Assembly (NCBI GenBank): GCA_050084515.1
Contig: CM114271.1
Location: forward strand, 22,010,001 to 22,074,000
DNA from: Blasia pusilla
Taxonomy: Eukaryota
DNA length: 64,000 nucleotides
Reading direction: 5' to 3'
Below are positions 17,085-54,951 of the stretch, piece by piece. The translations under genes and the position numbers were made by a program. The notes beneath the pieces are model-generated. The model ran no database searches and was not told the DNA's origin. It saw only the letters and a list, made by a program, of their open reading frames with translations. Every line of letters begins with the position of its first letter. The stretch's first letter is position 1.

Positions 17085-17507
17085 GTGGATGTGACTGTGA
17101 AAGATTCGTCCACCACAATCTTGGACGGTGTGCAAATGATCCAACACTCGCCACATCCGACATCATCGCCGATGCTATCCACAATCACACCTAATGCACA
17201 CTCACCATCATTGGGGCTTGAGTGTCACTTAATAATGGGACAGTCTCCAAAATGTAGGTTGGAGAACATCTTCGGGTAGTTTGCAAGTGTCGAAGAATTC
17301 GCAACATTCCCCAAAACATGGCTGACCTCGGGTCTTGTAAACAAAGTCCTAAACCCGCTGAAGAATTATCGTGACATAGCCATCCTGCCACCACTAAATG
17401 AATTAGACCAACCCTATCCAAATCCTATGCCCCCAACAATGAAATTTCGGCCAAAAATACATGTTGATATCCCCTGATTATAGACATGGGCAATAATTGA
17501 GGATACT
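17085..17507 (-). mobile_element. Older methyltransferase-gypsy copy, left piece (MTase motifs III-VIII)
   Basis: The minus strand reads YPQLL...RGYQH...HLVVAGWLCHDNSSAG...TYILE...AHRPRLWWTNL, homologous to 24820-25230 (+). Confidence 0.85.
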
Positions 17508-18777
17508 TGTGATACCCACAATTTTGTACTTTTGAAGAAATACTTCTTTTTATTCAACGAAGGCTTGTATATATATTATGATTTTGATTATTATATATTA
17601 TTATGGGGAGGAATGAGTAAGATTAAAGTGAATCACGAAGCTCCAAGGACAAGGCAGAGAGATAGAAAATCAAGGATAAAATAACGAAGTCTCAAGACCC
17701 AGCAAGAAGCTTCGGAACAACAACGAAGCCCTGTGAAGCTCTATTAAGCTCTGGCTATGAAGTGCTTCGCTCTATAACGAAGTATAACGAAGCATAACGA
17801 AGCGTAAGAGAAAGAAGTACTTTGCTCTTGAACGAAGCACGAAGAACGAAGCACCTGGAACAAGAACAAAGAATGGAGCGCTTCGTCTTCAGATCAGGAG
17901 AAAGAGCTTCGTCCTCAAGCGAAGCAAAAGAGGTTCAGACTTAGCAGCGAAGCGAAGCTAAGATTGACAGTGATTTCAAGCGACATATAGTTAGAACAGT
18001 TAGAATAGGAAAAGACGCAACCCTTTGTATCAGATTGGTAGTTATGACAGTTTTATTCTGCAGATTCTCAGGGATCATAGGAAAAGCAAAGAGCACCATA
18101 GATCTAGGTAGTTACAAATGTTGAAGAGACACCATCTTCATAAAAAATGCTTCGAATCTTTGGATCACTCCTCCTTCAGAGAGTATTTAAGAAGCATAGA
18201 AGTAGCTATCATTATCATTCTCTTACGAAGTCCTCATGCTGTATGGTCCGAGCAAGGGAGTAGTACCCTCTTGAGCTTGTATACACTTTGAAGCTTTCTC
18301 ATTCTTGATGGAGTAGTAAAGCAATCATTCATTCATTCTGATGTGCGATGCTTATATCTGAATATTCTTTTTGGGTCTGCAGAGTGAAGAGTGAATCAGG
18401 CCAACCTTTCTCATCAATGGAATAATCAACATAAAGTTGTAGGAAATCTGTTTGACAGAGAGTAGCCTGCCGAGACGGATTGAGTTCCGAAAGTAGGAGA
18501 AGCCAGCTTTCATGTTGAGGTCTCTGTGAGGTTTCTTGATATCGAGAGAAATCAGCCTAAGCATGCTGTCAACTCCACTAGAGAGAATTGAGAAAAGAAA
18601 CTTTGGTACTAAGAAAGATCTGAATATATTGATAAGACATTGAATATAAACCATACACATTTAAATACAACTATTACAATAGAATTGTAATTTCGAACTC
18701 TCTTTTCATCAAACAATGATCCTCTTGGGGATTGAACTTAGTAAACGACTGTAAAATAGAAACTCTTGTACATTACA
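17508..18777 (+). repeat. 5' LTR of the Athila-like element
   Basis: Starts TGT right after the TSD. The last 97 bp (18681-18777) match 36521-36618. Many (A)ACGAAG(C) motifs in 17630-17960. Confidence 0.8.
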
Positions 18778-18795
18778 TATAGAACCAAAACTTTT

Positions 18796-18813
18796 TGGCG
18801 TCGCTGCCGGGGA
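18796..18813 (+). promoter_or_regulatory. Primer binding site, tRNA-Asp type
   Basis: TGGCGTCGCTGCCGGGGA, two mismatches from the plant tRNA-Asp PBS TGGCGCCGTTGCCGGGGA. Confidence 0.8.
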
Positions 18814-21800
18814 TCATAAGATTTTTGGAGAGGGAGAGAGACACATGGGGAATCCAGGAGCGGGGAAGGAAGCCTCGTCTCCTAGAAGACCCAACCATCT
18901 AGTTCTTACGAAAGACCATCTGCTATCTCTAACTATCCCCCTAAGACAATGGATGAAAGAAGATAACAACCGGTTTGCTGCATTGATGCTAGAAAAGATA
19001 GAACAATTAATTAGTATTTTCAAAGAACCAATCGCCGAACGGTGCTTTGCCCATGAACGTCAGTTGTACTTGATGATGACCCGATACTTCTGTTTATGGG
19101 AGGAAAACATGGCAGGAAGATTAAGAGCACCTGCACAGTCTTGTAGGCTTTAGGAATTAGGAATTAGGAAGATCTAATTTCCCTCCATGGATCCCTACCT
19201 TGTGGCAATCGTGGGTGCGGAAGCAAGCTCCCGAATCCCAGAAGGGACTCATGGAAGTCTCCCGGCCCTCTTTGCGAGATCAACGAGTTGATCGATGCAA
19301 TAAGCAACAAGAAGATCACCCGTATTGGAGACCGCAGGGGGTGTCTCCTAGTCTTGTCTTTGCACGAAGCCCAAGAGCAAGAAGAGGGACAGGAATACGC
19401 TCCCCAACACGTCTCTTGCCAGTTTGCAGTCGGACGAAGAGTCAACCTTTGGGGACTCGGGGGACGAGGAGCCGACCAAATCAACTAGATCGGAACCGCT
19501 GCCTCCTCCCTCCCGAGCATCAAGCCCGGGACCCAGCAGTAGACATTTCCCAATGGCCAACACTAGGAAGACGCTGCTAAGATATCCCACGTTTGCAGGG
19601 GGACGGCGAGATGATGTTGACAACTTTGTGCTAGAATTTACCCATGTAGCCAAGGCTAATGGGGAAGGCTCAGAGGAGGATTTGTTGGGAGTCTTTCCTG
19701 GCATGCTTAAGAAGCAAGCAAGCCAATGGTACGAGGGTCTCGGAGCGGACGTCACGGAAACCTGGAAAAAGGTACTGGAGGCCTATCTTCATGAGCTTTG
19801 TGACCTAGAGTTCGAGGACAGGCTTTTGACGAAGCTTCGCGACCTGAAACGTAAAAAGAAGGAAACTCTCAGGGAATACACCCAAAGGTTTCGTAGCCTT
19901 GTGAATAAACTTGAACACACTACTACCTCACAATTGGTAGATTGGTTTGTATCGAGATTGTCCAAAGAAATGGACCGGTATTGTCGGCGAGGCCAATGAG
20001 ATTCCCTGGAAGAAATCATAGCATCTGTAGAGGCGTATGAGGCCTCCTAGAAGTCCCGTAAAACACAAAGACGGCGTCATCAACGACGAGGTTCTTCGCA
20101 AACTAGTTCTTCGTCCGAGGACGAAGCGTCCTCTACAGACACGAAATCCTCTACTGGGAACACCTCGGAATCCTCGAACTCCAAAAAAGATTTAAAATCT
20201 AAGCGGAAAAGAAAAAGCACGCTCCACCACTCTCCCAAGCATTCTCACATCTGAGTAGCCGATACTCCGAGATCTATCGTGGATAGGACGTAGGAGCCAA
20301 CGGACTATCTTGAGTGTAACTTTGTCCCACTGTGTCCGATGAGGTTGAGGATAGGTCCATTTTGTGAGGAACGTCGTTTCTCATAACTTTCATGTCGAGG
20401 TCTTCCACAGCCTGGTGACTTGTTGACCAGGTCACCCGCCCTTGGTAACCTATGCGCGCAGGTTACCAAGGGGAGGACTATTTTTAGGGTAAGAGCCTTT
20501 TGGCTCTTCCCAACCCTATATAAGAGAGGAAGATGGCTTTCCTAAGCCATCTTTCTCATGTTGGGCCGTTGGAGCACCTCCCTTGTATGTGTGTGAGATA
20601 GGACTAGGGTTCTAACGTCCGAATTCCTTGATAGCACAGGGTGGACGAGGCTCGATATGTCGATGTAGATTGAGCCATTTTTACTACTCTTTATTTTTAC
20701 ATGAGAAAGATGTCAGGGGGCTGGTGGGAATTTGTTGTTTGCAGGTAGGCAAGCGAGTTGCCTTGGTCGGGAGCCCGTGGAGACGTTGGTTGGCGTCGTA
20801 TTTGTCATTTTTTCTGTTGGGAAGGCCGTGGGCGGAAGCGCTGTCCGTTTTTTTCAGATTTTGCTGGTGCGGATTGATGGGGGACAGCAAGAGGGTGAAG
20901 CCCAAGTTGTGACAGCAGGTATAGCGTCGTCTAATAGCGGGAATGTCGGGATTTAGCAGGAAGGAGAGTTAGGGCTTGCAGCCACCGGGGGGCTGTCAAG
21001 TAAAGGGCATTTAGGTCAGGGGGCGCGGACGGGTGAACGGCGACGGTCGCGGATGGGAGGACGGCAATGGTCGCGGATGGGAGGATGGCGACGGGCGGCG
21101 ACCGCGCGTGGAGGAGTGCATGGGCAAACGTGGTAGGACCGGATGTGGTGGAGTTGCAGGGGCTGAACGTGGTAGCGCAGTCCGACATGGTATCACAGTT
21201 GGCCGGAGTGACGTGGTAAAGTCGGACGTAGTCGAAAGGGAAGACATGGTTGGGAGCCGACCAGGGTGAGTCAGGTTACATGCCGCGTGTGGGGATGGAC
21301 GGAGAGGTTTGCGCGACAGGGCGTTGCGAGAGTTGACGATGGAGGGGCAGTGCAGATGATGCCGAAAGGTTGTCCACATTTGTTGACGGGAGGATCGACG
21401 TGTTGGTCGAGGAGAGTGTTGTGTTGCGGAGGTTGTCATATCACATGGAGGAGGGCATGTTGACGGAGCAGCAATTGGAGGGCATGATTAGGTTACCCAT
21501 TCAAGTCCCTTTTCCCGCACTTGCCGTGTGTGATTAAGAGTGATGGGTATCCGGTAGTAGCTGGTGCTAGGTGGGTCCAGCGATGGTGACGAGTGTAGAT
21601 TCTTTTCATGTGTAGCATGTTGGTGGATATATGGCGGTTGCCGAGTAGGGGTCGCGTGTATGATCTGAGAGAGTGTCGCTACGTTAGGTGAGTCAGTTGG
21701 GAGGCTCATGGTGAGCCTGAGTGCTGAGTGTGCGTGAGGCCGGGTATGTCATCAGGGGATTGATGTTAGCATAGGTGAGCTAGTGAGGCGTGTGGGAGAC

Positions 21801-22035
21801 TCTCGGTGAGTCTGAGTGCTTGAGCGGGTGAGACAGGGTTTGTCATCACGGCGTTCTTCCAGGGTTCGGAAGAACGGGGTAGTGCGAGCAGTAGTAGTGG
21901 TGTGATATGGAGTGGAGTGAGATACCAAGGGGTTCCCGTGAGGAGCTACCTCAACATCCATCTGTGGTTGGATCGTCATCACTATACATTGGGTCTGGTG
22001 ACGAGCTTGTAGACAGAGACAGTAGTACTTGGCAA

Positions 22036-24300
22036 GAGATGGACGACATGGGCCATCGGGGCATGCGTCGTTTCTCGGGTGCAGTGGGCACCATCGACTT
22101 AGATGATTTTATCCAGGAGTTCGACACGTGGTGCAACTTCCAAGAGATACTGACCCCGACACGATTCAACCCTTTCATGGCATGGAAGGGGTTGTTCTAG
22201 CACTTGGAGGGTCCTCCGATGGATGACTACATGGAGTTTCGATCACTACATTCTGTAGAGATCGATGCTTGGAGGATGTATTGGGCTCCTGGGTATGTGT
22301 CCACTAGTGGTTGCGAGGCATATGATGGGATTGTGAGAGGAGAGAGACCCACACCATCAACCCGGAGACTAGATGGAGAGGAGGGCAGTGAGACAGGCGA
22401 TGTGGCAGAGACCTTTGGTGGTAGAGGGCCACCCAGCTTCAGCCCCACAGTGGAGTTCTTTCGACAGTTGGGGAAGAGCTACCAAGGCGTACGCACCGAC
22501 AAGTTGAAGAGTCTATAGGATTTTCAGCGACGATCGGGTGAGAGTCTGAGAGAGGCATTCACACGCATGAGGAGGCTAATCATTGCTACGTATGGAGTAA
22601 CTGAGGCGCAGTCAGTCCAATATTGGTACGGGGTTTAGGGTTTAGGGTATTGGTACGGTGCTGATTCACACAGCGAAGCCTACATTGAAGGTAGTCTTTG
22701 AGTTTTCTGAGCGTATTGAGCTCAACATGAGTGAGGAGCAGGTAGTGACCGCTGGATTTTCCCGAGAGTCAACGGGTCCACGAGCGACGGTGACCCTACA
22801 GATGCCACTGCGACCACCAACACCACGGGAGCGGGCTAGTGTGCCGAGAGAGCAGGGCGGGTACTGTGAGCCTATGAGGCAACGACCCGTAACTACATAT
22901 GTTGCCCAGCAAGAGTCGATGTGGTCTTGTTGGACGTGTGGAGGGGCCCTTAGGCAGAGAGACTGCCCACAGCATGGGAGAGGACCACCAACACCTCCGT
23001 TTGCTCAAGAGCCACAGAGGATGGCCCCACCACAGCACTAGTGTGACTATTGCCACAGATATGGTCACACTAGGGATAGATGTTTTGACCTTCACCGAGG
23101 GGCACGTCCAGAGGTAGGTCGAGGGACTGGGGGCGGTCGTCTTGGAGGAGGTTGGGGAGTTCTTCTTGGACGTGGTGGTAGAGGACCACCACCAACCAGA
23201 GGAGATGGAGCAGGAGCACCAGAGCCGGCACTTCTCTCACGCATCGATCAGTTGGAGCAGAGGATTGCTGCCATGACCATGATGCAGCTTAGGGAAGGCA
23301 CGGAGCTGCGAGCAGCTGGTGTGACTCTAGCTTCTACCTCTTACCCTGACTCGGGTGAGGATCTCGCCAATATGTGTAGTGCAGCCCAAGTTGAGGAAGC
23401 TGCAGTGGTGACTCGGGGTGTTGCGAGAGGCACAGAGCCAACGAGAGGTGGAGTTGAGATTGACCCACCAGAGGGGACCGATGGGCCGCAAGCCAGGGTT
23501 CCACAGTCATTCACGTTGTCGGAGGCACTACACACACCATCAATGGTGCCTCAAAGACCAGCGGTGCCTACAACTCAACGTCGACCATAGTGTTGGAGGT
23601 GGCCACCAGAGTGAGTCAGACTCCACTATTTTCTGCCATAGAGTGGCGACGTTGGGAGTTGGACCAGTCGAGGTGTTCCGGCTGGCCGCCACGTTGTGTG
23701 AGCGTGGAGAGATGACAGCTTCTTGTTTAGAGGTAGTTGAGGAGGTGGTGGACTTGCCCTCAGAGCCGGTGCTTAGGACGTTCCTGATAGAGTCATGGCA
23801 TGCGGGGGCGCGAAGTTGGTAGATATGCCAGCTCGACCTGCCATAGAGCGAGCAATGGTAACACCTGGAGTAGTGTTACTGGATAACCGAGCTGGAGTAT
23901 TTCGCTTGGTTAGTCCGACGGGGACAGTATACCACCCGCAACGCGTCCTACTTGATTCGGGAGTGCAATCCTTGGTGTTAAGGAAGGCGGCGTGTTTAGC
24001 GTTGGGGTTACGGAAGGCCGACATTGAGCCTTGTCCCTTCCAGATACAAACCTCGATTGGAGGCGTATCACCCACTCACTATATGACTCGACAGGAGATT
24101 GTTGTCAGAGTCCAGCCATAGCATGCGACGGATAGTGCTATGGTGCGCACACGTGCGATTACTACACCAGTTGAGTCGTACGATGTGTTGGTGGGGAGTA
24201 CAGTGTTATATCCCCTAGGATTCATCCTTGACTTTTGGGAGGAGACCATTGCTAATCGGCCAGGGTGGCGGTCAGGTGATGGCCGGATGAGTCAGTTACC
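22036..24300 (+). pseudogene. gag and aspartic protease of the MTase-gypsy element
   Basis: FSGAVGTIDLDDFIQEFDTWC; zinc knuckles CWTCGG..RQRDC and CDYCHRYGHTRDRC; protease RVLLDSG...YDVLVG. Several in-frame TAG stops. Confidence 0.8.
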
Positions 24301-24669
24301 CGTGCAGTTTGCGGGACGAGGTGGTCGATCACGAGGCGAGTCTGTGACCACGTTGGCGATTTTCACAGGTAGTGTTAGCTGGCCAGGAGAGTTGTTGGAG
24401 GGGAACGCACATGCGGAGGATGTCCCAGTAGCGGATAGTCCCACGGAGAGACAGGCCATGGCGGGTGTCTCTTCCCATGTTGGCGAGACCTCTTCACCAT
24501 TGTGGGATACGACTCGAGAGCTACAGAGGAGTGCTGACGACTTGGTGAGGCAGGCGTGGAGTCATGCTTTTATCCCGGAGCAGCGAGAGTCACGTGGCGA
24601 TCGGGCTCTTGGAGTGGAGATGTTGACTCCACTGGATACCACAACCGTTTTGTGGCAGAGCCCAGAGGA

Positions 24670-25625
24670 GGGTGTTAGCGTGTTAGATCTCTTGGGAGGG
24701 ATTAGCACCGGATTGGCTGCAGTATTGCAGGCGGGCATACGAGTGCATCAGTACCTTTATGTGGAGAGAGATGAGACCGCGCGGCGAGTATCATTACGTC
24801 ACGTGGCGAGATTGGTCCAGAGGTATCCTGGGCTGTTTTTGGTATCTGCAGTACGGGGATATCAGCATACACTACCCGCCAAAATCTCTTTGGTGGGGCC
24901 GCAGGATCTGGATAGAGTTGGCACCATTCATTTGGTGATTGCTGGATGGTCATTTTAGGGTCATTCATCAGCTGGCCGAGGATTTGGATTGCAGGATCCG
25001 ACGTCAGGGATGTTTTGGGAGATGATGCGAGTAGAACGACACTTGCAGGAGAGTCAGACATGTTCTCCAACGTACATCTTGGAGAACGTGTCGTTGTTGG
25101 GAGACACTCGTGCACGTGTGATGACGAGTGTGTATAAGGTGAGGTCCTGGTTGGGACCTGCTGTGTTATTAGATGCGGCGAGAGTTGGATCACGTGCCCA
25201 TCGTCCACGATTGTGGTGTACGAACCTGATACCAACAGAGGTACTGAGTCGAGCATACGATGGAGTCCAGAGAGAACCACATCTCATAGTGGATGCTATT
25301 TTTGGGCTTAGGGCGTCAATCTCAGGTGGTGACACGGGATGATAGACCCCTGTTGGCCATGGCCAATAGGGTGGGGGAGTTGAGGGCAGCCTTACCTACG
25401 TTGGTGAGCTTCCCACCATCCCATGCCTTTTGTCAGGGAGGGCCAGGCATGATTTGGGATGAGGTGACCGGAGCATTGGAGGAGCCTACAGCAAATGAGC
25501 GCGAGCGCGCCATGGGTTTCGCTACCGATACTACGACGGTGCCAGGGATGACAGAGGCATCCCGAAGACAGGTGTTGGGGCAGGCAATGGACCTCAACTG
25601 TCTCACATGGATAGTCAACCTAGGT
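24670..25625 (+). pseudogene. DNMT3-like C5-cytosine DNA methyltransferase catalytic domain within pol
   Basis: Motif I VLDLLGGISTG, II YLYVERD, IV IAGW(SF*)GHSSAG, VI YILENV, VIII DAARVGSRAHRPRLW, IX NERERAMGF, X RRQVLGQAM, in canonical order. One stop and one frameshift. Confidence 0.88.
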
Positions 25626-25892
25626 ATGGCTGAGCAGAGACGGATGCGAGTGTCATCCATGCCGTCACGTCCACGAGTTGGACCATAGCCTACAGGGTCT
25701 GTACAAGCATTGGTTGGGGGCGAGATGAGGAGAGATAGGCACCCATGGACTTCTTGGGACGTCGTTCGAGCAAAGAGTGTGAAGGCGGCTAGAGTAGCAC
25801 ATATTCATTTTTTGGATGTGGAGCATGGTGGAGAAGGTCAAAGTGAAGTGGCTGTTGCAGAGGTGGCTAGGGTTGCTACATAGCAACCAAAG

Positions 25893-28800
25893 ATGAAGGT
25901 TTTGTCCTCTCCGAGTGAGGTCACGATGGAGACTTGGGAGCCTGTGATAGGTCTCAAGTTGATAGGAGGAGAGCGACGGCGAGTTCATAGGTTTCTGAGA
26001 GGGCATGTCAGTTGTTTTGCCTTCAATATGAGAGACTTGGGTACGCTGAAGGGTCCCGGGATACGGATTGAGTTGGCTAGTGATACCCTGATCTTTCGTC
26101 GACCCTACAGATATTTTGATCTGGAGCGAGCCTTGATTCAGAGTAGGAGTCATGACTTGTTGGAGGTAGGACTTGTGGAGTTATCACATGGGGAGTATGC
26201 ATCTGCCACAGTCATGCCGGCGAAGAAGGATAGGTATGGCAATTGGACGGATAGGCGGATGTGTGGAGATTACCGTCCTATCAACCGACAGACGAGGTCA
26301 GATCGATACGGCATGCCTACTCCTGAGGAGATCTTTGATGCGGTAGGGCATGCAAAGATCTTCAGTACTTTAGATCTCTGTGTTGGCTATCATCAGCTTC
26401 CTATCTGGTTGGAGGACAGGGAGAAGACAACATTCTGGGGGATAGATCGGTTCCGGAGAGATTGCTTGTATTAGTGGCGGTTCTTACCATTTGGGTTGAA
26501 GAACGCGCCTGCAGAGTTTCACAGAGTGATGGATAGGATTCAGGCTGGCTTGGATTTTGTACGATGTTACATAGATGATATTCTTATCTTCAGTTCCATG
26601 GTTGAGGAGCATGAGCGACACTTGGAGGAGGTGTTTTGGCGATTGCAGTTACATGGACTGAAGTAACATCCAGGCAAGTGCAAATTCTTTCAGGAGCAGA
26701 TTGAGTACTTGGGACACACCATATACCCGAGTGGGTTAGGCGTTCAGCAGACAAAGGTAGAGGCTATTGCACAGATTCCACGCCCTACAGATGTGAGTCG
26801 AGTCCGAGCATTTCTTGGACTGGCAAACTTCTATCGACGGTATGTCAAGGGTTTTAGTGCGATCGCAAAGTCTTTGACCTTGTTGATGAGACTTGATCAG
26901 GTTTGGTTGTGGGGAGATGATCAGGAGCGAGCATTTCAGGAGCTCAAGGACTGGTTGACATCCTCACCCATTTTACAGAGACCGTTTAGGGATCGCCCAT
27001 TCCAGTTACATACGGATTGGAGCATGTTGGGTCTAGGAGCAGTGCTTACTCAGAGGGATGATGAGGAGAGGGAGTTCGTTGTGGCTTACGCGAGCCGATC
27101 AAACAACATTGCAGAGGCGAAGTACAACTCCTACGAGGGAGAGTGTTTGGCTGCAGTGTGCGCCGAGGCACATTTCAGGTGCTATTTATTCAACAACCCT
27201 TTCACACTTATCACTGATCATCAGCCGTTGAGGTGGTTGATGGAGTCCGACAAGCTTACGGAAAAGCTTGCCAGGTGGGCTCTATTACTACATGAGTATG
27301 AGTTTGAGGTGGTTCATAGGCCAAGTCGGCTGAACCAGGATGCGGATGGGTTGAGTCGTAACCGATGTCCAAGTAGAGAGACGACCTTGGAGCTCGATGG
27401 CACGGAGAGAGTGATGAGGAGATGGTGCCCGGTTGGCATGCATCTGCCTATCTTTGTTGGTTGACTATGGCAGGTCAGCCACAGGTGATGACTCCTGTGG
27501 TAGGGTTGGATGATGAGTCTTTCGATCCGGAGGTTAGTGAGGAGGCGACAGTTGGTCGTGATATCCATGACGATGTGGAGGTTGTGGAGTTCTTGCGCAC
27601 AGGCGTCATAGCGAGTACAGTGAGTGCTAGGGAGCGGGATCGGATCCTACAGAGAGCCAAGAGGTTCACGTGGGAGGGGACTCACATTTTGCGGGTATGG
27701 GGAGATGGTAGGATATGAGTGGTACCTCATCCTTTCCAACGAGCACGTGTAGTGCGACATGCCCATGAGGAGTTGGGACATTTTGGAGTAAAGCGAACTT
27801 ACAGCTTACTCCAGGTTCAGTATTGGTGGCGCGGCATACATACTGGGGTACAGCAATTTGTGGCTAGATGTATGGTATGTGATAGAGTGCAAGCATCCTT
27901 CAATGCTCCCACTCCACAGTTACATCCTTTGCCGATTATGGGTTTAGGTTATCGGTGGAGTTTAAACTTTGCGGGACCTTTGCCATTGACGAGGCGTCAT
28001 CATATGTACGTGTTGGTCATGGTGGAGCATTTTTCCAAGTGGATAGAGTTGGTGGCACTACCAGACAACGCGAGTGAGGGAACAGCTTATGCATTTCTAG
28101 ATCGTGTGCTTAGTCACTTTGGCGCACCGGCGGAGGTGTTGACTAACCAGGGTACCGAGTTCAGGGGAGAGTTTCAGGCCTTCGTGATCAGGCGCTGATA
28201 GATCACCGCACCACGTCCACAAATCATCTTAAGACGGATGGGTTGGCGGAGAGAATGGTACAGACGGTGAAGAGAGGATTGCGCAAGTATGGCTTGCAGC
28301 GGGGACAGTTGAGGGAGTGGGACCTACACTTGCCATGGTTGGCTATAGGTTATCGCTTTAGTCGGCAAGCATCCTTGGCGTCATTTTCACTGTACTTTTT
28401 GCTCTTTGGGAGAGAGCGAGATTTAACTGCAGCGATTCGACTTGACATGGCGGAGGTGTTAGATCTTGATGATCGAGATGTGTGGGTACAACCATGTTCT
28501 CAGAGGGCGGAGGTTTTTCGTAGAGTTATGCATATGGCCTTTGAGAACTTAGCTATTGCCCAGCATAGAGATACATTAAGGTACGCTACCATTCGTGAAG
28601 GAGGTTATCGTCCAGGGATTAGGAGGTTTTATCTTGGAGATTACGTATATTTATAGTAGGTGGCACCCACGACGCTAGATGTCACTGCAGGGCGCACGAT
28701 CATACGTGTGCGCGAGGTATTACCGACCGGAGTCCTCATGTTGGAGAGACGGGATGGTATGGTTTGGAAGGATCATGTGCACAATTGTGCGCCATGTCAT

Positions 28801-28998
28801 CTTCCGAACGTAGATGGGACAGTGGATCCGAGCTTGGCAGTGGTACCTGCAGGCTTGAGGTGTATGTTGTGCGGATCTGCGAGGGGTGCAGCCACCATAT
28901 TGGTATGTGATGGTTGTTCTCGAGGGTGGCATATGTCATGTCTGACCCCCCCTCTTGATGTGGTTCCCACGGGACGATGGATGTGTCCGAGATGTGTA
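25893..28998 (+). pseudogene. RT, RNase H, integrase and C-terminal PHD finger of the MTase-gypsy element
   Basis: RMCGDYRPIN, PFGLKNAP, CYIDDILIFS; LHTDWSMLGLGAVL; HAHEELGH...CMVC, SLNFAGP, LTNQGTEF, GLAERMVQTVK; C4HC3 PHD at 28861-28998. Confidence 0.9.
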
Positions 28999-29813
28999 TA
29001 GGGTAGTAGGTCATGTCAGAGAGATGTGATATTTTCTATCTAGAGTTGGGGGGATCCAATTGCCAACTAGGGGGGCGGTTTTGTGATCTCCATGTATATG
29101 TATGAGTTGATTTTTGTACATGTATGGATCGACCCGTGTGTGGGGAAGATCAATGTTATGTGGTGTAGATGTGACTAGCGATGTATGTTGTGTAGCAATA
29201 TGTATGCGCACGACAGCTCTCACATCTGAGTAGCCTATAGGCTGAGATCTATTGTGGATAGGGTGTAGGAGCCAGCGGACTATCTTGAGTGTAACTTTGT
29301 CCCACTGTGTCGGATGAGGTTGAGGATAGGTCCATTGTGCCACGAACGTTGTTTCTCATAACTTTAATGTTGAGGTCTTCCACAGCCGGGTGACTTGTTG
29401 ACCAGGTCTCCCGCCCCTAGTAACCTGTGCACGCACGTTACCAAGGGGAGGGCTATTTTTAGGGGAAGAGCCTTTTGGCTCTTCCCAACCCTATATAAGA
29501 GAGGAAGATGGCTTTCTTAAGCCATCTTTCTCATGTTGGGCAGTTGGAGCACCTCCCTTGTATGTGTGTGAGATAGGACTAGGATGCTAACGTCCGGATT
29601 CCTTGACAGCACAGGGTGGACGAGACTCGATATGTCGATGTAGATTGAGGAGTGGAGTTTTAGGCCGGGTGTGCCGTTGTGGGATCTCCATGTATATGTA
29701 TGAGTTGATTTTTGTACATGTGTGGATCGACCCATGTGTGGGGAAGATCGGTGTTATGTGGTGTAGATGTGACCAGCGATGTATGTTGTGTAGCGATATG
29801 TATGCGCACGACA

Positions 29814-32800
29814 ACATCGAAGGAAAACCATACCAGCAAAGCACCTTCCCCAGCGGTCGGAAAGTCCAGTAAAGGGGACAGCGAGGAAGGCAGGCAAGTC
29901 TGCCATTGAAGAGCTTAGTAAACAAATGGTGAAATTGAAGGTACATCTGGCGGCCCAGAAGGATCCCAGAAGACGACCAGGTCTGATGAGGCCCAACATC
30001 TGGTGCAATATCTGCTACGGAACCCAAGGGCATACTGCTCAAGAATGTCATACTCAGAGAGATTTACATTGGATCCAAGAAGATCCAACTACACAAGAAG
30101 GGTGGTATGAACCCGAACAGTGAGAAGGGTGTTATGCAATCCAAGCTATGCCATCGCCTAATCCCGGACAAAGTTGGATCACCCGATATGTGCCTCCGGA
30201 ATACGGGGATTAGAGACCCCTAAGACAGATTATGGGCGCGGCAGCCTTCACGCCACCCATAAAAAGGAATTGTTGTTATAAGTGCGGAGCAGCTGACCAT
30301 TGGGCTAATAATTGCCCAAATCCAAAGCGGCCAGTAGGACTCAATCCATTGTGCAGAAATTGCAAAAAGGGCGGGCACACTGCAGTGGAATGCCCGGAGC
30401 CCAAGGTCCCACGGTTGTTGGTAAAGTATGTCAATACCCCAGCAGCCCAACCAGAGTCCAAGAATGACGTAAATGTGCAACTCGTCCGAGTGGAAGAGTT
30501 AGGGTCCCCCAGGACAAGGCGAGTGAGTCACTATCAGGGAGGAGGACTGCGACAGAACGGCGGCCGAAGAATCATCAAACTGGCCCAAGGAGCTCCAAAA
30601 CACCGTTCTTACTGTCACCACGAGGTCCAAGAACCAGACCGCTGGGACCCCAAGGCAAGGAAAGGTGCTTCGTCTTCGCGCGAAGCTAAAGACCCCAAGA
30701 CCAAAAGTGTCGACGACTTCCGCGGCGGGAAGGCCATCCTAAAAGGCGATGTTGACCCGGCCTTCAATCAAAGTCACCCTAAGTACTTCCATCAAGATAT
30801 CGAGGACCAGGTTTGGGCTCAAGTGCGCCAGGACCAAGGGCCAGAAGGGAGGCAGACCACAGAGAAGGCGAGAACCAGAATGATTCCGGCAGTACAAGCC
30901 ATCGTGACGTCACCTCTGGTCTTGGAAGCCTATGACTTACTCATGGACTTGACATAAACCCTGGCCAATATAACCCTGCTGCAATTATTAATGGATAACC
31001 CTGTGTACGGCAAAATTTTGCAGCAGTGGAAGATAAGCCGCAGAAAACCCAAGAAGTCTGCAAAGAATCTACCAGTAGTGGATCTGTTCTGTATCAAAGT
31101 GGAAGATTTGGGAGCCCCAGAGGTAGAAGTGGAGATTGAGGGACACACCATTAAGAAGGTCCCCATTGACTTGGGAAGTGGAATTAACATAATGACGGAA
31201 CAGACGGCCCAAGCACTAGGATACACGGAGTACGAGCCCACCGACAAGTATCTACGGTTCGTGGATCAGTCCCGGAAGCGACCCCTCGGACAACTCACTC
31301 AGATCCTGACCATGCTCGGCGAAGTGCTATTTCTGTTGGACTACTTAGTGTTGCAGCCCTTAACAACCACTGACTATCCTTTGCTTATTGGAAGAACCTG
31401 GCTCTACGGTGCGAGAGTGACTACGGACTGGAAAAGGAGATGATTCACGTTTCAAGCTCCGGACCAGATCTCAAAGCGACTCATCAAGTTGTCGTGGAAA
31501 TCACGACCACCCCAAGGAGAAACACCACCAATTGATGAAGGCTATACGTCAGATCAAGAGCGGACTATAGCTACGGAGTCCTCGTATAATGTGTATTATT
31601 TAGAATGTTACGAAGAGGAAGAGAAGCTGGGTCATAGCACATTCCACTTCACAGAAAATATGGTTCAAGAAAAAGACTACATAGAGGTCTTAATTACATG
31701 TCATAAGTCTCTACGCCTCTTGGCGGATTTGTCTCCAACCGAACTCATTAAGTACAAAAGGTCATTGTTTGAGTATTTGGATGTGTTTGCGTACTCCATG
31801 GATGAAATGACATGCATTCCAGCATGGTATGGTGAACACCGAATTGATCTAAAAGAAGGTGCGGTCTCGATACGGATGAGGCAATATCGTCTCGACCCAA
31901 AGTACTCGTTGTTAGTCAAGGACGAAATCGACCAGCGTCTCGAAGCAGGAATAATTTATCCTGTGTTAAGTAGCGAGTGGGTGTCGCCCACTGCAATTGT
32001 ACCCAAAAAACAAACGGGAAAAATCAGAGTGTGCCAGGATTATCGGAAATTGAATTCGACCACCTTAAAGGACCATCACCCCCTACCTTTCACTGACAGT
32101 ATTTTGGACAAAGTCGCCGGCCACGAGTGTTATACCTTCTTGGATGGATACTCGGGTTATAACCAGGTATCCATAGGAGAAAAAGATCGGCCCCTCACAA
32201 CTTTCACGACGGACTGGGGAACTTTCGTGTATCGTGTGATGCCCTTTGGGTTGTGCAATGCGCCGGCCACCTTCCAATGGTTGATGATCTCCATCTTCCA
32301 AGAGTATCTGCGGAAGTTTGTTGAAATTTTCCTGGACGACTTTTGTATCTTCAGTATCGAATCCAAACACTTGGAAAAATTAGAATAAACCCTTGCTCGT
32401 TGTCGCGAAGTGCATTTGTCCGTCCATCCGGAAAAATCGTATATTGCCATGAAACAAGGGATTTTGTTGGGGCACAGAGTGTCGGCTCAAGGAATTGAAG
32501 TTGACAAGGCCAAGGTGGATATTATTGTCATATTAGAACCACCCACAAATCTTCGAGAATTGAGAGGATTCTTGGGACACGTCGGATATTACCAACGGTT
32601 TATTAGGGTTTATGCCGTAAAAGCAGGAGCCCTTACCGCGTTACTTAAAAAAACTACCGAATGGGAGTGGACTCCACCCTGCCAAGCGGCATTTGACGCC
32701 TTAAAGGGAGCACTACAAAAGGCTCCTGTACTTCGGTCCCCTAAGTGGACCAAACCCTTCCACTTATATGTGGACACATCCTCGTTTGCCATTGGAGTGG

Positions 32801-34597
32801 TGCTCAACCAACTGGATGAGAACAAACATGATTTCCCGGTTTACTGTGCAAGCCAGCAACTGTCTTCAGCGGAACAGAAATATACAATTACCGAACGAGA
32901 AGCGTTAGGCATGGTCTTCTCGTGCAAAAAGTTCCGTCACTATTTATTAGGGTACGAGTTTGTCTTCCATGTAGATCATTTCGCGCTCCGACCATTAATG
33001 GTTAAGGCGGACCTGTCAGGTCGCATTGCACGATGGATCCTGTTACTCCAAGAATTCACATTTTATGTCATTACCCGTGCCGGCAAGTTTCATACCAACG
33101 CGGATTTTCTTTCTCGGTTGAGGATGATGAAGGCGGACCTCACACAATCCGTGGATGACACCTTTCCCGATGAAGACCTATTCCTGATAACGGAGGACCG
33201 TTGTGCCAATCCTTTTATGAAGATATTTTGCGTTTCTTAATTACTTTGCGACTTCCCGCCCCTATGACAACGGAGGAACGAGCAGTCTTTTTACATATGA
33301 TAGGACCATATGAGATATATCAGGGGATACTATTCAAATTAGGTGCGGATGAAGAGTATCGGCGATGCTTGGAAGTAGAAGAAATCCCCCACGTCATCAG
33401 AGCCATGCATGCGGCTGATTCTGGTGGACACTACGCTGTAAAAAATACCGTTAAGAAAATATTGGCCGCACGTTATTGGTGGCCAACTATGTACCAAGAT
33501 GTAGGTTACTTTATCCAAAGTTGTGATGCATGCCAAAGAGCAGGTCGACCAACGGCTACCTCAAGGTGGCCTTTGATACCCATCATGCCGCTAGCGCCAT
33601 TTGAAAAATGGGGTATTGACTTTGTGGGCCCCATTTCCCCCGCTACTCGCCACACAAGGCAAAAATATATTTTGATAGCTACCGACTATTGTACCAAGAT
33701 GATGGTGGAGGTGGTGGCCACGCGCAAAGATGATAGTGGGGCTGTGGCCAAATTTTTATACGAAATGATTATCACTCGGTATGGCTTCCCGTTGGAATTA
33801 GTAAGCGATCGAGGCACCCATTTTCTGAACCAAACTATTTAGTCCTTAACGTCACACTTTCTCATTAAGCATCGAAAGACCATGCCCTATAACCCTAAAG
33901 CCAACGGGTTGACTGAAAAAATCTAACGGCCTGATCTGCCGGATATTGAAATCGATTGATGGTAACGTATTCCTATGATTGGGACATGAAAATTTCCGCG
34001 GCATTGTGGGCATACCGAATAGCCGAGAAGGTTACTACAAAGTATACCCTGTTCTTCCTGACTTATGGCGTTCATCCCTTAACACCTATTGAATGGGCTT
34101 TGCCCACTTATCGAGTGTTGGAAGGAACAAGAACGGAGGCAGTCGGTGAGGTTTTACAAGGAAGGAATGAGACCTTAGTTGCGTTGGAGGAAGCACGCAC
34201 GTTGGCTTTACGCCACACCAAACATGTGCAAAATGAACGCAAGCAACGATACGATCGACATCTCCGGCCGCAATCTATAAGCATTGGAGATCTGGTGCTG
34301 TTGTATGATAACCGTTGGCTAAAGTTCCCCAGAAAGTTAAAATTAAATTGGATGGGACCCTACCGGGTATTGGCCATCTATGATAACGGATCACTACAGT
34401 TGGGGACCTTACAGGGCAAATCCCTGCCCACTCATGTCAATGGGATGCATGTTCGGCGGTATCATGAGCCTCAACCCTACCGGAGGGAAGGGGGTGAGCG
34501 ACTGCTTGAAGCTTTGCAAAAGGGCAAAGCGCCAGGATACTGGAACTTCACAGAAGCGCGATGTATGGGAGCTTTGCAGAAGCGCGAGAGTTTATGA
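29814..34597 (+). pseudogene. gag C-terminus and pol of the Athila-like element
   Basis: CNICYGTQGH, CYKCGAADHWANNC, CRNCKKGGHTAVEC; RVCQDYRKLN, MPFGLCNAPATFQ, IFLDDF; LYVDTSSFAIG; integrase core; GPY tail WMGPYRV. Confidence 0.88.
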
Positions 34598-34711
34598 GCT
34601 TCGCAAAAGAGCGAAGCGCCAAACTGACTGTTGCAGTCCCGGCGCCAAGGCTAGAGCACGCATAACGCTGGGACTATATAAGCGTCCCTACTTAATCGGA
34701 CGGGTATTTTC

Positions 34712-36346
34712 ATGGATGGAGTCACCACAAAGTTGCGTAGCAGACCAAAGCGGGGCGTTCACCGAGATCAACCTACCAGCATGCCTCATGAAGACTCCAC
34801 GCCCATTTTGCGAAGCGCGGCCATGCCTATGGTCAAGCTGTCACCAGAGTTGGTCAAAGCGCTTGAGGAACGGTCTTTGGCGACTTTCTTTCAAACAAAT
34901 TGGACCTTGACGTCCGGGGAACTCCTTGGGGAGCTTCGTTCCTCGACTGCAGAAGCCAAGTTTCGAAGAAAGGGTCTTTGATATCGAGCTCAGCCACAAC
35001 AATGGACGTCGGATGACTGGCGAGCAACTTATATGCTCCCGGCCGCTCCAGAGGTATGATTATGACACCGAATTTATAAAGCACAAAGATTTGTTGGCAC
35101 TCGGTTGTGTAACGTCTGATCGCCTTGGTAGGAATGGCTACAAGGCTACTTCGTTGTCACCGCCATTGTTTGGATAGTTTTGCAAGCATGTGATGACTAT
35201 GTTTTATCCTGCTCGTTCTTACTACCTCACAAATAAGCTCTTCAAGATGTGCTATAGCCTTTGGAATCAGTACCTGGACCCCGAAGCACCGGGAGTCGAC
35301 TTCGCTTCTTTTGTGGACGGGCACGTACGCGCAATGCTAGAAGCACTTCATTGGAGCACGAAGTCATTCCCGTCTCCTTTTTTAATCCATATATATATTC
35401 ATAGGCAGGAATTGACGGCCAACGAGGCGCTAGATTGGTCGCAAGTCACTCCCGTCCGCCTGCCAAGAAAGAGTGGAATGGTCACTAATGGGAGCCGCGA
35501 AGTCACCCCACCACGCGAAGCAGCCCCAAAGCAACATCCGCATACTTCAGCTTCAGGGAAGGCCGAGGTGTTCACCGAATTTCCAAGACCAAAGCGCGGC
35601 AGGGTCAATTTCGAAACACCCTCGGAAGCAGAACCCGCAACTCAGGAGGACTCCGACGAGACGCCTCGTGCTAACGATCACCGTCCTGCTCTTCGTCTTA
35701 TGTCCCAGACAGCCAACGACATGGTGTGGTTCCTAAATTTGGCTGTCCCGGTCATGATTAACTTCAACATGTTCTCCACCAAGAAGACACAACGGCAGTG
35801 GACGAGTATTTACAAGCCCTTTATGACCTCAACTGGAGGGCCCAATCTTCGTCAGAGAACAAAGCACAACGCAAAGTGGCGGAAGCAAATCTTCAGCTGT
35901 GGGATCAAGAACTCAAAGACACTAAGACGACGCTTCGCAAAGTTCAAAGCGACTTGGTCCAGAGTTAGTACAAAGCACGGAACGCACGCCAATGAGAGAG
36001 CTTGGCGATTAACCTGGAGTGTGGCGCTGATCAGTTAGCTTCGCAGGTCAAGGAAGCTTCGCAATTGATTCAACAATATCGACACCAAATGCATCATATT
36101 AGCAACGAATTCAAGAAATTGGCGACACAACATCCTCAGTCTTCAAAGTTGCTTCAAGAACACCAAGAAACAAACAAAGACTTAGTGGCCCAGTGGTCGG
36201 TTGCTATAGGGAGGATTGCTGTCTTGGAGGCAGAACAAAAGTTGCTCAACAAAGTGGAGTTAGACCCAGAAGATGTCAAGGAGATTCAAAGTCAAATAAA
36301 TCTTCTTTATAATCCTATCTTGTTTATTACCAGTTATCATCAATAA
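34712..36346 (+). pseudogene. Extra ORF downstream of pol (unknown function, coiled-coil-like C-terminus), frameshifted
   Basis: Consecutive sense ORF pieces 34712-34981, 34926-35177, 35190-36038 and 36002-36346 between the integrase and the 3' LTR remnant. Confidence 0.55.
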
Positions 36347-36618
36347 TTACATAATCTCGGTGACATTACAATGTACATAAGCATTAGAATGCCATCAAGA
36401 CACATTGTAATGGGTAAGAGGTTGGTTATCACCTCTTCCTCCGAAATCTTAGATTATTCTTTCCTCTTGTTCTATATTTTTTATCTCCATCTAACCTGGT
36501 TGATATGAGGCTGTCTCCTCAGAAATTGTAATTTCAAACTCTCTTTTCATCAAACAATGATCCACTTGGGGATCGAACTTAGTAAACGACTGTAAAATAG
36601 AAACTCTTGTACACTACA

Positions 36619-37560
36619 ATACTTATGGACTAGTCGTGAGATATTGTGTAATGAGAGTCTATGTACGGTCTTATCCCTCTCAACATAAAAGTATATATGT
36701 TCTCGTACTCCGACCTACAACACTCCGACCAAAGTAGTACTAATCCCTCCAAAGAGATCTAGTATCTGTACACCCTCCTCAGGATACTCCCACACAATTG
36801 GTGTGGTGTCCAAGGATGCCAACATCTTCACTGCTAGGGCATGCGGTAACTTTGTCGCATCTCACTTTGAAGCATAGGCTCGTTTCCACGCCTGCCCCAT
36901 GAGCTTGTTTGCACTCCTCTGTATATCAATGCTCATTCCCCATAGAGCAAAAAAAAAGGATCGCCAATAGATGTGGTCATGCTTGTCATCGCATGAGCAT
37001 CGCATGCCATTTCTCAAGACTATCCTCTACAAGAATATCCTCTACATGGGCGTTCCCATGCAATGAATTTCCATGCCAACATAATCTGCCACAATAATTG
37101 CAACAGTTGTGGTCGACTTTGGGAGTGAATCACCAAGTCTCCCTGCACACCGCACGAGTAGCTGATTGGCTCATCCCTCACTTGATTTCTAACCTGGTTG
37201 ATATGAGGCTGTCTCCTCCCAAAAGCAAGTGTAAATCCTAGGGGATACAATGAGGTATTCCCTACCAAAACATCGCAGGACTCGGTCGGCATCACCATTG
37301 CTTGGATCCACACCATTGCACTATTAGTAGGATGATAGGGTCGTGAGGCATGTACTGTGTTGGGGATGTGCCTCCTAGTGGAGTCTGAATCTGAGACGGA
37401 CATGGAGAGATCTCACGTTTCCGCAATCCCATCACTACATATGTCGCCTTCCTCCACATAAGGGATTGAGCTCCTAAATCAAGAAGAACACGCTGCAAGC
37501 GATACATGACTCAAGACGGATCAACCAAATGGAAAACTCCATCTTGGTTGTCAAGACAAA
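36619..37560 (-). mobile_element. Older methyltransferase-gypsy copy, right piece (protease to MTase motif II)
   Basis: The minus strand reads LDNQDGVFHLV...RVLLDLGAQSL...SCDVLVG...YPLGF...ISRLVHKY and joins the left piece in frame across the TSD. Confidence 0.85.
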
Positions 37561-54006: not shown

Positions 54007-54484
54007 TGTCGTGCGCATACACACCGCTACAAAATCCACATTGCTGGTCACATCTAAACACCACACAACACTGATCTTCCCTACACACGGGTCGATCCAC
54101 CCATAAACGAAATACGCTCACCCATATACATCGAGACTAAACAACCAAATCAAAATAAAATCGGTTGACCTGACCTTCAAACTCCACTCATGAATCTACA
54201 TCGGCATATCTAGTCATATCCACGCTCTAACCTCCTCATTCACGCACACCAAAAGTACTCCAAAGACTCCCTTTTTTTTTAATAGCCATAGGCTAACCTT
54301 ATGCTAGCAAGTTGTTGCACTTCCTTGAGGCTTAATGCCAACCCAAGCTGCCCTCGCCGAAGTCTCGCAACCCTGAGAGTTGCCGCACTTCTTGAATACT
54401 CAGACCTGGCTTGGTCTGCCGACTTTTGAGTTGAGCGCATCTCGACGACGGCCCTACCTCGATCCAACGATGAAGAACGTCACA
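54007..54484 (-). repeat. Solo terminal repeat related to the MTase-gypsy A-x-B unit
   Basis: The reverse complement of 54007-54220 matches 29630-29813 (gatgtagatt..gagtggagttt...ggatcgacccgtgtgt.gggaagatc...tatgcgcacgaca). The boundary at 54484 is tentative. Confidence 0.7.
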
Positions 54485-54951
54485 CATGTGCTTACTGCCA
54501 CGTGGATGCCTTCACCTGTCTCTTGAGGCACTCATATGAGCAGTCGTTTCGTCAAGTGCGGCCTACGCTGCACAGAGCTCTAGTGGTCTCCGTGAGCGTA
54601 GACGCATTTCTACCGTTGAAGCTGGTTCTTTATCATTTGTAACACCCACATCAGTAGAGGAAGGCCCAAACGTTAGAGAAACCCTAACTCGGGAATTGTG
54701 AGGTGTGAAACGAGAGGGAGATATTTCCCGTCGTCCTCTGTCGTGGGGTTATGGGGGTTTTGCAACTCCGCTGTCCCCCGACCGAGATTCAGTAAATTGA
54801 GGGAGGCGCCGATCGATAAAACTCGACGCAAGTGTGGGATCGGCAAGTCGGGATCGCTGGACATGTTGAGCTTTTTGTCAGGAGCTCAGTAAGGAGCGGA
54901 ATGATGAAAATTTGAGGTCGGTACAGAGGAATTCGAGGCACGCGAGACGTA

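Follow-up and report, generated by a model that had tools for sequence, protein, structure and literature searches.

How an element that encodes a DDE integrase can carry the split direct repeats of another kind of retroelement is the question raised by this locus. Textbook long terminal repeat (LTR) retrotransposons insert the linear cDNA produced by reverse transcription; split direct repeats count as a mark of tyrosine-recombinase elements that pass through circles. The element in question spans positions 20243-29813 of a 64,000-nucleotide stretch of Blasia pusilla DNA (contig CM114271.1, forward strand, 22,010,001 to 22,074,000), the whole of which was analysed and is called the window here. 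It is a degraded, dead Ty3/gypsy "Gypsy-DNMT3" retrotransposon, that is, a member of a streptophyte Ty3/gypsy lineage whose Pol has captured a Dnmt3 domain, and it is structurally typical of that lineage. We read the order A1, leader and coding region, polypurine tract (PPT), B1, GC, A2, spacer, B2 as the form in which Gypsy-DNMT3 elements are normally inserted. The probability that this split layout is lineage-typical and was inserted by the integrase is put at roughly 80%; that some permuted or circular intermediate was also involved is considered likely, with slightly less confidence.

The initial annotation of the locus had described a left end with A1 only and a right end reading B1-GC-A2-27 nt-B2. 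The repeat search of the window, blastn and alignments all returned this arrangement, A1-coding-B1-GC-A2-27 bp-B2, over 20243-29813. The repeat search gave the direct repeats 20243-20542/29218-29517 and 29070-29215/29668-29813 and reported no inverted repeats. The non-coding parts are listed below; x and y are two short segments found between A and B in other copies, PBS stands for primer-binding site, and L003 and L009 are two contigs of an independent family described later.

20243..20674 (+): A1, the left repeat, starting with TCTCAC; a TATA-like box was seen by eye near A position 273.
20675..20699 (+): y, a T-rich 25-nt segment that lies between x and B in other copies and adjoins A1 here because x is deleted; placed by the read joints 29672 to 20674 and 20696-20699 to the B start.
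20700..21897 (+): G-rich leader of about 1.2 kb (read depth, GC skew and tandem-repeat finding).
29068..29078 (+): PPT, TAGGGGGGCGG, 2 nt upstream of B1; the same tract is flush with B1 in L003 and L009.
29081..29215 (+): B1, TG/UGUA-rich, ending in ...GCGCACGACA; its 3' half is conserved in L003.
29216..29217 (+): GC dinucleotide of the internal B-A joint, missing from both inserted termini.
29218..29649 (+): A2 (repeat search, alignment and blastn).
29650..29676 (+): x spacer, 27 nt, with a PBS-like stretch starting with TGG; y is deleted here, and L009 has an analogous 20-nt spacer starting with TGG.
29677..29813 (+): B2, with the right terminus ...CACGACA (repeat search, alignment and blastn).

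Both A copies start with TCTCAC, in accordance with the TC start noted initially. The internal joint, ...GCGCACGACA-GC-TCTCAC, consists of the two inserted termini end to end plus two extra bases, which bears out the earlier description of a circle-type junction of the right terminus with the left one; judged by its bases, the joint looks like an LTR-LTR circle junction. Past the end of A1, the sequence was immediately out of register with that following A2, and local alignment detected no hidden B or A downstream of A1 (20675-21900), where the scores did not exceed those of shuffles. Compared with the common A-x-y-B form, this copy has lost x, a 24-nt segment with the TGG-starting stretch, after A1 and y after A2, while x is kept by A2 and by other copies. 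The earlier statement that no PBS follows A1 is true of this copy but is a copy-specific feature.

One explanation of such a layout would be that a conventional element with the LTR A-x-y-B was rearranged once after its insertion, or became part of a chimera or was misassembled, and a chimera had been suspected initially from the substitution spectra of the repeats. By blastn, A1 (20243-20674) and A2 (29218-29649) were 92.6% identical over 432 bp, and B1 (29075-29215) and B2 (29673-29813) were 93.6% identical over 141 bp. An exact count gave 32 differences among 432 positions for the A pair (18 transitions and 14 transversions), close to the first estimate of about 30 with many transversions. 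For the B pair it gave 9 among 141 (6 transitions and 3 transversions); the six transitions reported initially hold for the 131-bp core but not for the full 141 bp. The A pair (7.4% diverged) and the B pair (6.4%) did not differ significantly in rate (Fisher p=0.85) or in spectrum (p=0.71), so that the suspicion of a chimera has no statistical support, and the equal divergence fits the creation of both pairs at insertion. A one-off event could draw on the leader beside A1, which is unique in the genome, on two 24-nt indels between A1 and A2, and on transversion clusters at A positions 19-24 and 120-126. Against it, one and the same 137-bp module would have to have undergone two precise events, divergence is alike in the two repeat pairs, the leader conceals no B, the host open reading frame (ORF) is exactly restored, and the layout recurs in L009 and L003 and in print. 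We therefore regard it as very improbable, the evidence from L003 and L009 having already largely refuted it, and the unusual replication route that was offered initially as the other option is favoured.

The footprint of the insertion defined what was inserted. The element lies in the gag of another gypsy element (the host element, 18683-36618), which has plain 95-bp TG...CA LTRs at 18683-18777 and 36524-36618, Retrotrans_gag to the left of the insertion, and zf-CCHC and RVT_1 to the right (Pfam). The host gag frame stops at 20242 (...AAG CAT) and restarts in phase at 29818 (CGA AGG...). It is restored only by removing the element plus 3n+1 nt (4 nt), indicating that the element was inserted as a single unit with a 4-bp duplication, the two copies of which match at three of four positions:

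20239..20242 (+): left copy of the target-site duplication, GCAT, in the host gag.
29814..29817 (+): right copy of the target-site duplication, ACAT.

The inserted DNA begins with base 1 of A1 and ends with the final base of B2. Its termini are TCTC...GACA, and neither includes the G or the C found between them at the internal joint. A 4-bp target duplication is the signature of a DDE integrase. It bears on the idea that DIRS-type elements elsewhere in the genome provided a tyrosine recombinase in trans. The repeat layout is indeed that of recombinase elements, but the target duplication, the lack of a recombinase domain in the element and in L003, and the intact DDE integrase retained by the lineage make this origin extremely improbable.

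The coding content places the element in its lineage. The order is protease (PR), Dnmt3-like domain, reverse transcriptase (RT), RNase H, DDE-type integrase (IN) and a C-terminal PHD finger, with stops interrupting all of the reading frames:

21898..23590 (+): gag-like region with in-frame stops and CX2CX4HX4C knuckles in the translation, without a Pfam match.
23777..24121 (+): protease-like region with an LLDSG motif by eye (blastn to the L003 region carrying Asp_protease_2).
24671..25620 (+): degenerate Dnmt3-like C5-cytosine methyltransferase with a mutated motif IV, a stop codon and a frameshift.
25884..27464 (+): RT (fragmented, by homology) and RNase H (Pfam RT_RNaseH).
27719..28656 (+): integrase with an H2C2 zinc finger and an rve core, both catalytic Asp residues being changed to Asn.
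28660..29001 (+): PHD finger at the integrase C-terminus (Pfam PHD), also found in L003.

The Pfam matches were RT_RNaseH (9.2e-32), Integrase_H2C2 (3.3e-15), rve (1.7e-09) and PHD (2.6e-11). RVT_1 was not detected by Pfam in this degraded element, and the RT was assigned by homology only, from 62.8% nucleotide identity over 26010-28956 to ORF2 of L003, which carries RVT_1, and from the RT of the host element. For the 400-residue stretch between the protease-like part and the RT, the top PDB matches were all the DNMT3A catalytic domain, weak in score (E=0.044) and spanning motifs I to VIII; PF00145 fell below the cut-off in this copy and above it in the relatives and in L003. The catalytic PCQ motif is kept in the family consensus and lost here. 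Among 8000 scored candidates, 26 homologues of the methyltransferase region were found at E<=0.001, from Marchantia polymorpha, Calypogeia fissa and Sphagnum fallax; PF00145 was present in 22 of the 26, and one also carried RVT_1 and RNase H. Fusions of PF00145 to gag/PR or RT are present among these Marchantia, Calypogeia and Sphagnum proteins, and the closest protein matches were liverwort and moss proteins with 37-59% identity. As far as these sequences indicate, the Gypsy-DNMT3 lineage seems widespread in bryophytes.

The integrase triad reads N, N, E in this copy and D, D, E in L003; the integrase of this copy is thus inactive. No tyrosine-recombinase domain was found among the domains of the element or in its 10 further ORFs scanned. 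The initial assignment of split direct repeats to an integrase-encoding gypsy element accordingly held, both H2C2 and rve being found along with the layout. At the integrase C-terminus, both the element and L003 have a PHD finger and no chromodomain, which sets them apart from chromoviruses; the PHD finger is a possible chromatin-targeting module beside the Dnmt3 domain. The Pol order PR-RT-RNase H-IN (the full set including RVT_1 in L003), the DDE triad (in L003) and the short target duplication are those of Ty3/gypsy, but two complete terminal LTRs are lacking, since the left end has A only and the PPT adjoins B. The Dnmt3-type domain inside Pol and the A-coding-B-A-B repeats are those of Gypsy-DNMT3. 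The element shares split direct repeats with the DIRS order but not its tyrosine recombinase.

Fragments of an older Gypsy-DNMT3 element flank the host element:

36619..37555 (-): PR/Dnmt3-like fragment of a second, older Gypsy-DNMT3 element, continuing at 17511-17101.
17101..17511 (-): continuation of the older Dnmt3-like fragment, with the motif IV Cys kept.

Two distinct Gypsy-DNMT3 elements lie within the 64-kb window, the older one being interrupted by the host gypsy element. The right-hand LTR of the host directly adjoins the older fragment; on the left, about 1.2 kb of A-rich, low-GC sequence (17512-18682) separates that fragment from the host LTR and may be a further nested piece.

Does the split layout recur outside this locus? 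A profile of the DNMT-RT relatives found one locus among prokaryote genome contigs, L003 (9285 bp), which is evidently a eukaryotic contaminant in a bin labelled cyanobacterial. A search with the non-coding part of L003 found L009 in the same bin (2905 bp, 87.5% identical to L003 4635-7395); with two eukaryotic retrotransposon contigs, the bin is contaminated. L003 is intact: ORF1 encodes a protease and PF00145 (45.9 bits), and ORF2 encodes RVT_1, RNase H, H2C2, rve and PHD (the PHD finger at 6459-6593). No recombinase domain was found in these two long ORFs or in 10 other ORFs of L003. The two long ORFs (gag-PR-DNMT and RT-RH-IN-PHD) share one frame and are separated by one stop codon (3489-3491), which could reflect programmed read-through or a single mutation. 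The ends of L003 are identical over 127 nt, giving a 9158-bp cycle, and this closure may reflect either a collapsed repeat or a genuine extrachromosomal circle. The order in L003 is the integrase stop, the PPT CTAGGGGGGGCAC, a TG-rich B ending in ...TTTACACGACA, GC, A starting with TGTCACGGG..., a 1.19-kb leader and gag. B is present once in the cycle, between the PPT and A, and the end of A leads into the leader, not into B. A second B following A on the 5' side was therefore rejected for the L003 family. A 27-nt A run is located at about 8152-8178 of L003, within the AT-rich part of its leader.

L009 supplied a right end, which L003 cannot show. It reads integrase end, PPT to 2310, B1 (2311-2416), GC, A2 (2419-2758), a 20-nt spacer, B2 (2779-2884) and flank, the flank being 21 unrelated nt up to the contig end. 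B1 and B2 are identical at 106 of 106 positions, and A2 ends in ...GACACCCA, with a terminal CA followed by the TGG-starting 20-mer TGGCGATTTGCCCTTCTCTC. L009 is a young copy of a different family from another organism with the same B1-GC-A2-spacer-B2-flank layout. In both L003 and L009, the B-A joint forms a perfect 10-bp palindrome, GACAGCTGTC (...GACA-GC-TGTC...). Between the window element and L003, significant non-coding conservation was confined to the 3' half of B together with GC (score 24, reached by 0 of 500 shuffles), and in both families B starts flush with the PPT or at most 2 nt from it.

The layout of this lineage has already been noted once in print, so that its kind is known and barely studied. 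For KnitGypsy-Dnmt3 of Klebsormidium nitens, a figure legend of 2018 describes repeats "the same as that of a DIRS retrotransposon" together with gypsy domains (de Mendoza et al. 2018, PMC5890265), and the initial supposition that integrase-encoding LTR elements lack such a layout is thereby corrected. Section 9, the legends and the passages of that paper covered here, supplements aside, gave no termini, target duplication, junction sequence or mechanism. A passage of a 2026 preprint (10.64898/2026.05.21.726589) mentions "streptophytes (Gypsy-DNMT3)". The literature search found the lineage described only for Klebsormidium and returned no paper giving termini, target duplications, a junction or a mechanism for such elements, although supplements may hold more.

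Within the source organism, recurrence was examined in reads. The segment 19700-30400 was aligned, at 85% likeness, to X1 and X2 (DNA of the organism holding the element, X1 possibly being the source sample), X6 (DNA of a second organism) and X20 (RNA). The family is highly repeated, with a summed depth of 7,000-75,000 in X1 compared to about 0-120 in the flanks. Among the best 15 of 122 joints, 14 led from the y end (20696-20699) to the B start (29078-29085 or 29676-29685), and one led from the x end (29672) back to 20674, joining x to y; none joined the PPT to A. This pattern points to A-x-y-B as the common form. In X6, a contig covering 28753-29107 starts at the end of the integrase region, crosses the PPT and enters B, showing 7 differences over 355 nt. 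The loose end after y in 8 contigs of X2 was uninformative (16 matches compared to 17 expected). Outside these data, a metagenome scan with the RNase H region gave two loci (45% and 19% identity), neither of which was a family member, and scans of viral contigs gave nothing or phage-type methylases only.

In the RNA, 99 reads of X20 ran from the last base of B into GT-TGTCAT.... We read these as the B-A joint of an expressed subfamily whose A would have the canonical TG start. The 30-letter sequence following B had no match in the window at <=3 mismatches and no significant local alignment to the element; an interpretation of the reads as B followed by the leader was abandoned in favour of the B-A joint of another subfamily. 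The first 8 letters after B, GTTGTCAT, recur at 21433-21440, near the point where the similarity of the leader to other copies resumes, and this recurrence may be due to chance or may mark a second att-like site.

A further copy was found in the window itself:

54007..54719 (-): diverged relative consisting of A'-x'-y'-B' only, without B upstream; its left boundary is uncertain.

Its A end, x', y' and B' are contiguous, its right terminus is the same ...GCGCACGACA (...CACGACA), and it is probably a solo unit. A target duplication ATATC/CTATC is possible but not above chance over the positions scanned by eye. The base after the right terminus is not G in any of the three cases (the element, this copy and L009), whereas the internal joints have GC, or GT in the RNA reads.

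These observations also bear on whether the replicating form is a conventional element with a B-GC-A LTR at both ends, the split copies being occasional by-products such as re-inserted two-LTR circles or tandem LTRs. PPT and PBS-like signals do bound B-GC-A, and the circular order of L003 is equally compatible with that form. By contrast, many different y-to-B joints were recorded in the source organism (14 of the best 15 of 122), and such joints are also present in X6, in the RNA and in the 54-kb copy; all three termini are seen at the B end; and the Klebsormidium family is drawn with the split layout in the legend cited above (PMC5890265). By-product status of the split copies is accordingly improbable, and a B-GC-A LTR at both inserted ends was rejected as the inserted form in view of the frequent y-to-B joints and of termini that, in every case seen, coincide with the B end.

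If the split layout is the normal inserted form, the following route could produce it. Conventional reverse transcription, primed at the PBS and the PPT, would yield a linear cDNA whose LTR is B-GC-A. End joining with the PBS segment retained would give a two-LTR circle, in which a single new A-spacer-B joint would be accompanied by two palindromic ...CA-GC-TG... sites. One of these palindromes would be cut by the integrase, which would then insert the resulting circularly permuted linear DNA. Only insertions from two-LTR circles would have a complete A downstream of B1, and a read-through transcript of such an insertion could bring the promoter part of A into the next cycle; an insertion from a one-LTR circle would consist of A...B only and could not transmit that part. 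Because the one-LTR-circle form would not be heritable, A...B-A-B would be the sole persisting form, with A1 and A2, and B1 and B2, identical at insertion. If both palindromes were cut, an A-spacer-B mini-unit would be set free, and copies such as that at 54 kb may have arisen in this way. The enzyme encoded by the family is an integrase; a tyrosine recombinase was not found. We hold the opening of the circle by the integrase at the palindrome as a tentative proposal, somewhat short of even odds. More speculative still is its extension to a whole plant-lineage Ty3/gypsy clade with an obligatory circular DNA stage, in which the DDE integrase would natively use a palindromic end-to-end att site inside the LTR defined by reverse transcription, and the proviruses would be circular permutations of the cDNA.

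The same ends might also arise without any circle, if extra template switches on the redundancies of A and B directly made a linear cDNA with an A start and a B end, and the integrase used ordinary linear ends. The layout matches that described for Ngaro, PAT-like and VIPER elements (PMC6681497, PMC9210276), and such template switching has been proposed for Ngaro/PAT elements. The RNA reads crossing the B-A joint mean that a transcript with both repeats exists, and an x+y spacer longer than a tRNA copy is easier to obtain by template switching. Yet B is flush with the PPT, and A of L009 ends in CA followed by TGG, so that conventional priming predicts ends there and not at the B-A joint; neither the B end nor the A start has a primer site next to it; and a palindromic joint with exactly two extra bases resembles ligated ends. 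We consider this template-switch route unlikely.

The leader deserves separate consideration, because its segment 20700-21432 (about 730 nt) is single-copy at >=85% identity, with single-copy read depth over 20771-21484. This unique segment has 55-65% G+C and many CpG sites. The excess of G over C is unbroken across the whole leader (skew +0.38 to +0.51; +0.38 to +0.46 in the unique segment), a 24-bp tandem repeat in three copies lies at 21024-21094 (TRF), and the A unit is about 1.2 kb from gag, the same distance as in L003, whose leader has a G-rich 27-bp repeat in three copies at a similar offset. As the skew, the length and the G-rich tandem repeat match those of L003, the unique segment is presumably a native, fast-decayed CpG-rich leader, and no sign of a foreign insertion was seen in it. 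At 21186-21200, ...CCGACA is followed by a TGG-starting stretch that we take to resemble a primer-binding site of the initiator-tRNA type, and five GAC(A/G)TGGT motifs are clustered around it (approximately 21128-21250).

Several observations weigh against the lineage-typical, circle-derived reading. Since the first 730 nt of the leader are single-copy, the 5' region of further copies in this genome is not directly visible, nor is the sequence after y in most of them, and a second full-length copy with both ends and flanks was not seen among the reads and contigs examined. In X6, a contig running from A through x-y 30 nt into B had about twice the depth of the internal contigs and no branch at the y end, which would fit a B after both A copies in that organism. 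L003, a collapsed or circular assembly, cannot reveal termini, and L009 is without its 5' part. The x+y spacer of the window family is about 48 nt, longer than a PBS copied from a tRNA, so that retention of the PBS at the circle junction suits L009 better than this family. No primer tRNA was matched to either spacer, and the window contains no tRNA genes. Both A copies of the window element start with TC and not with the TG of conventional ends. The circle route is a proposal built on sequence evidence.

Two other features of the window were recorded. The outer structure of a young Ty1/copia element (57765-63480; copia-type gag, rve and RVT_2) is odd. Beyond the element, at 63367-63480, comes a second copy (99.1%) of a 114-bp block from 57765-57878, and a 728-bp repeat (57874-58600 and 62649-63374, 99.6%) comprises the LTR, the PBS region and about 170 nt of the 5' leader and gag. 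The PBS and the start of gag thus follow the 3' LTR, and the flanking 114-bp duplication has an 8-bp overlap, GATTTCAG. This copy looks like a longer-than-unit DNA inserted by repair and not by normal integration. About 200 bp from the solo-like A'-B' unit, an ORF at 54916-55911 (+) encodes the RPOL_N domain (5.8e-29), which is N-terminal in single-subunit RNA polymerases of the phage type; this ORF probably represents an exon of a host gene for an organellar RNA polymerase.

What is new here is the insertion footprint, the palindromic joint, the repeat edges flush with the PPT and flanked by TGG, the recurrence in a second family, and a testable mechanism. Split repeats are here linked to an ordinary DDE integrase and a target duplication, for two families at least and, going by print, for a third. 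Should the integrase indeed cut a circle at its palindrome, circular forms of retroelements regarded as dead ends could be productive intermediates, providing a natural counterpart to the cleavage of LTR-LTR junctions by foamy virus and HIV integrases; the lineage would also be mis-annotated by LTR-finding software, which expects two complete LTRs. Should a circle be obligatory throughout the clade, an integrase element would have converged on the genome logic of DIRS/Ngaro, a natural case of the old idea of the circle junction as an integration substrate. The possession of its own Dnmt3 domain and PHD finger, with an apparent bryophyte-wide spread, bears on the interaction between transposons and host chromatin.

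The element can be compared with several known systems. KnitGypsy-Dnmt3, as portrayed in the parts of PMC5890265 consulted, is likewise a gypsy element with a Dnmt3 domain inside Pol and DIRS-like A-coding-B-A-B repeats; it belongs to another host, and the likeness is one of described layout and domains. Ngaro, PAT-like and VIPER elements share the split direct repeats A1 ... B1-A2-B2 and an internal joint of the right and left termini, but they use a tyrosine recombinase, whereas Gypsy-DNMT3 has a DDE integrase with an H2C2 finger, a gypsy-type RNase H and a 4-bp target duplication. With conventional Ty3/gypsy elements, represented by the host element (18683-36618), it shares the order gag, PR, RT, RNase H, IN, a polypurine tract and a short target duplication; the host has two complete 95-bp LTRs, whereas the element has no complete terminal LTR pair and carries a Dnmt3 insert and a PHD finger. 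Chromoviruses have a chromodomain at the position of that finger. Retroviral two-LTR circles are a further system for comparison. Foamy virus and HIV-1 integrases are described, in the portions consulted of PMC1180852, PMC1905944 and PMC4372172, as cleaving palindromic LTR-LTR junctions, and the ...CA-NN-TG... palindrome of abutted LTR ends is likewise cleavable by a DDE integrase to insertion-competent ends. The retroviral junction, as presented there, joins the ends made by reverse transcription, and its cleavage restores the linear order; in Gypsy-DNMT3, the PPT and the PBS enclose the unit that contains the palindrome, and cleavage of this palindrome would permute the genome.

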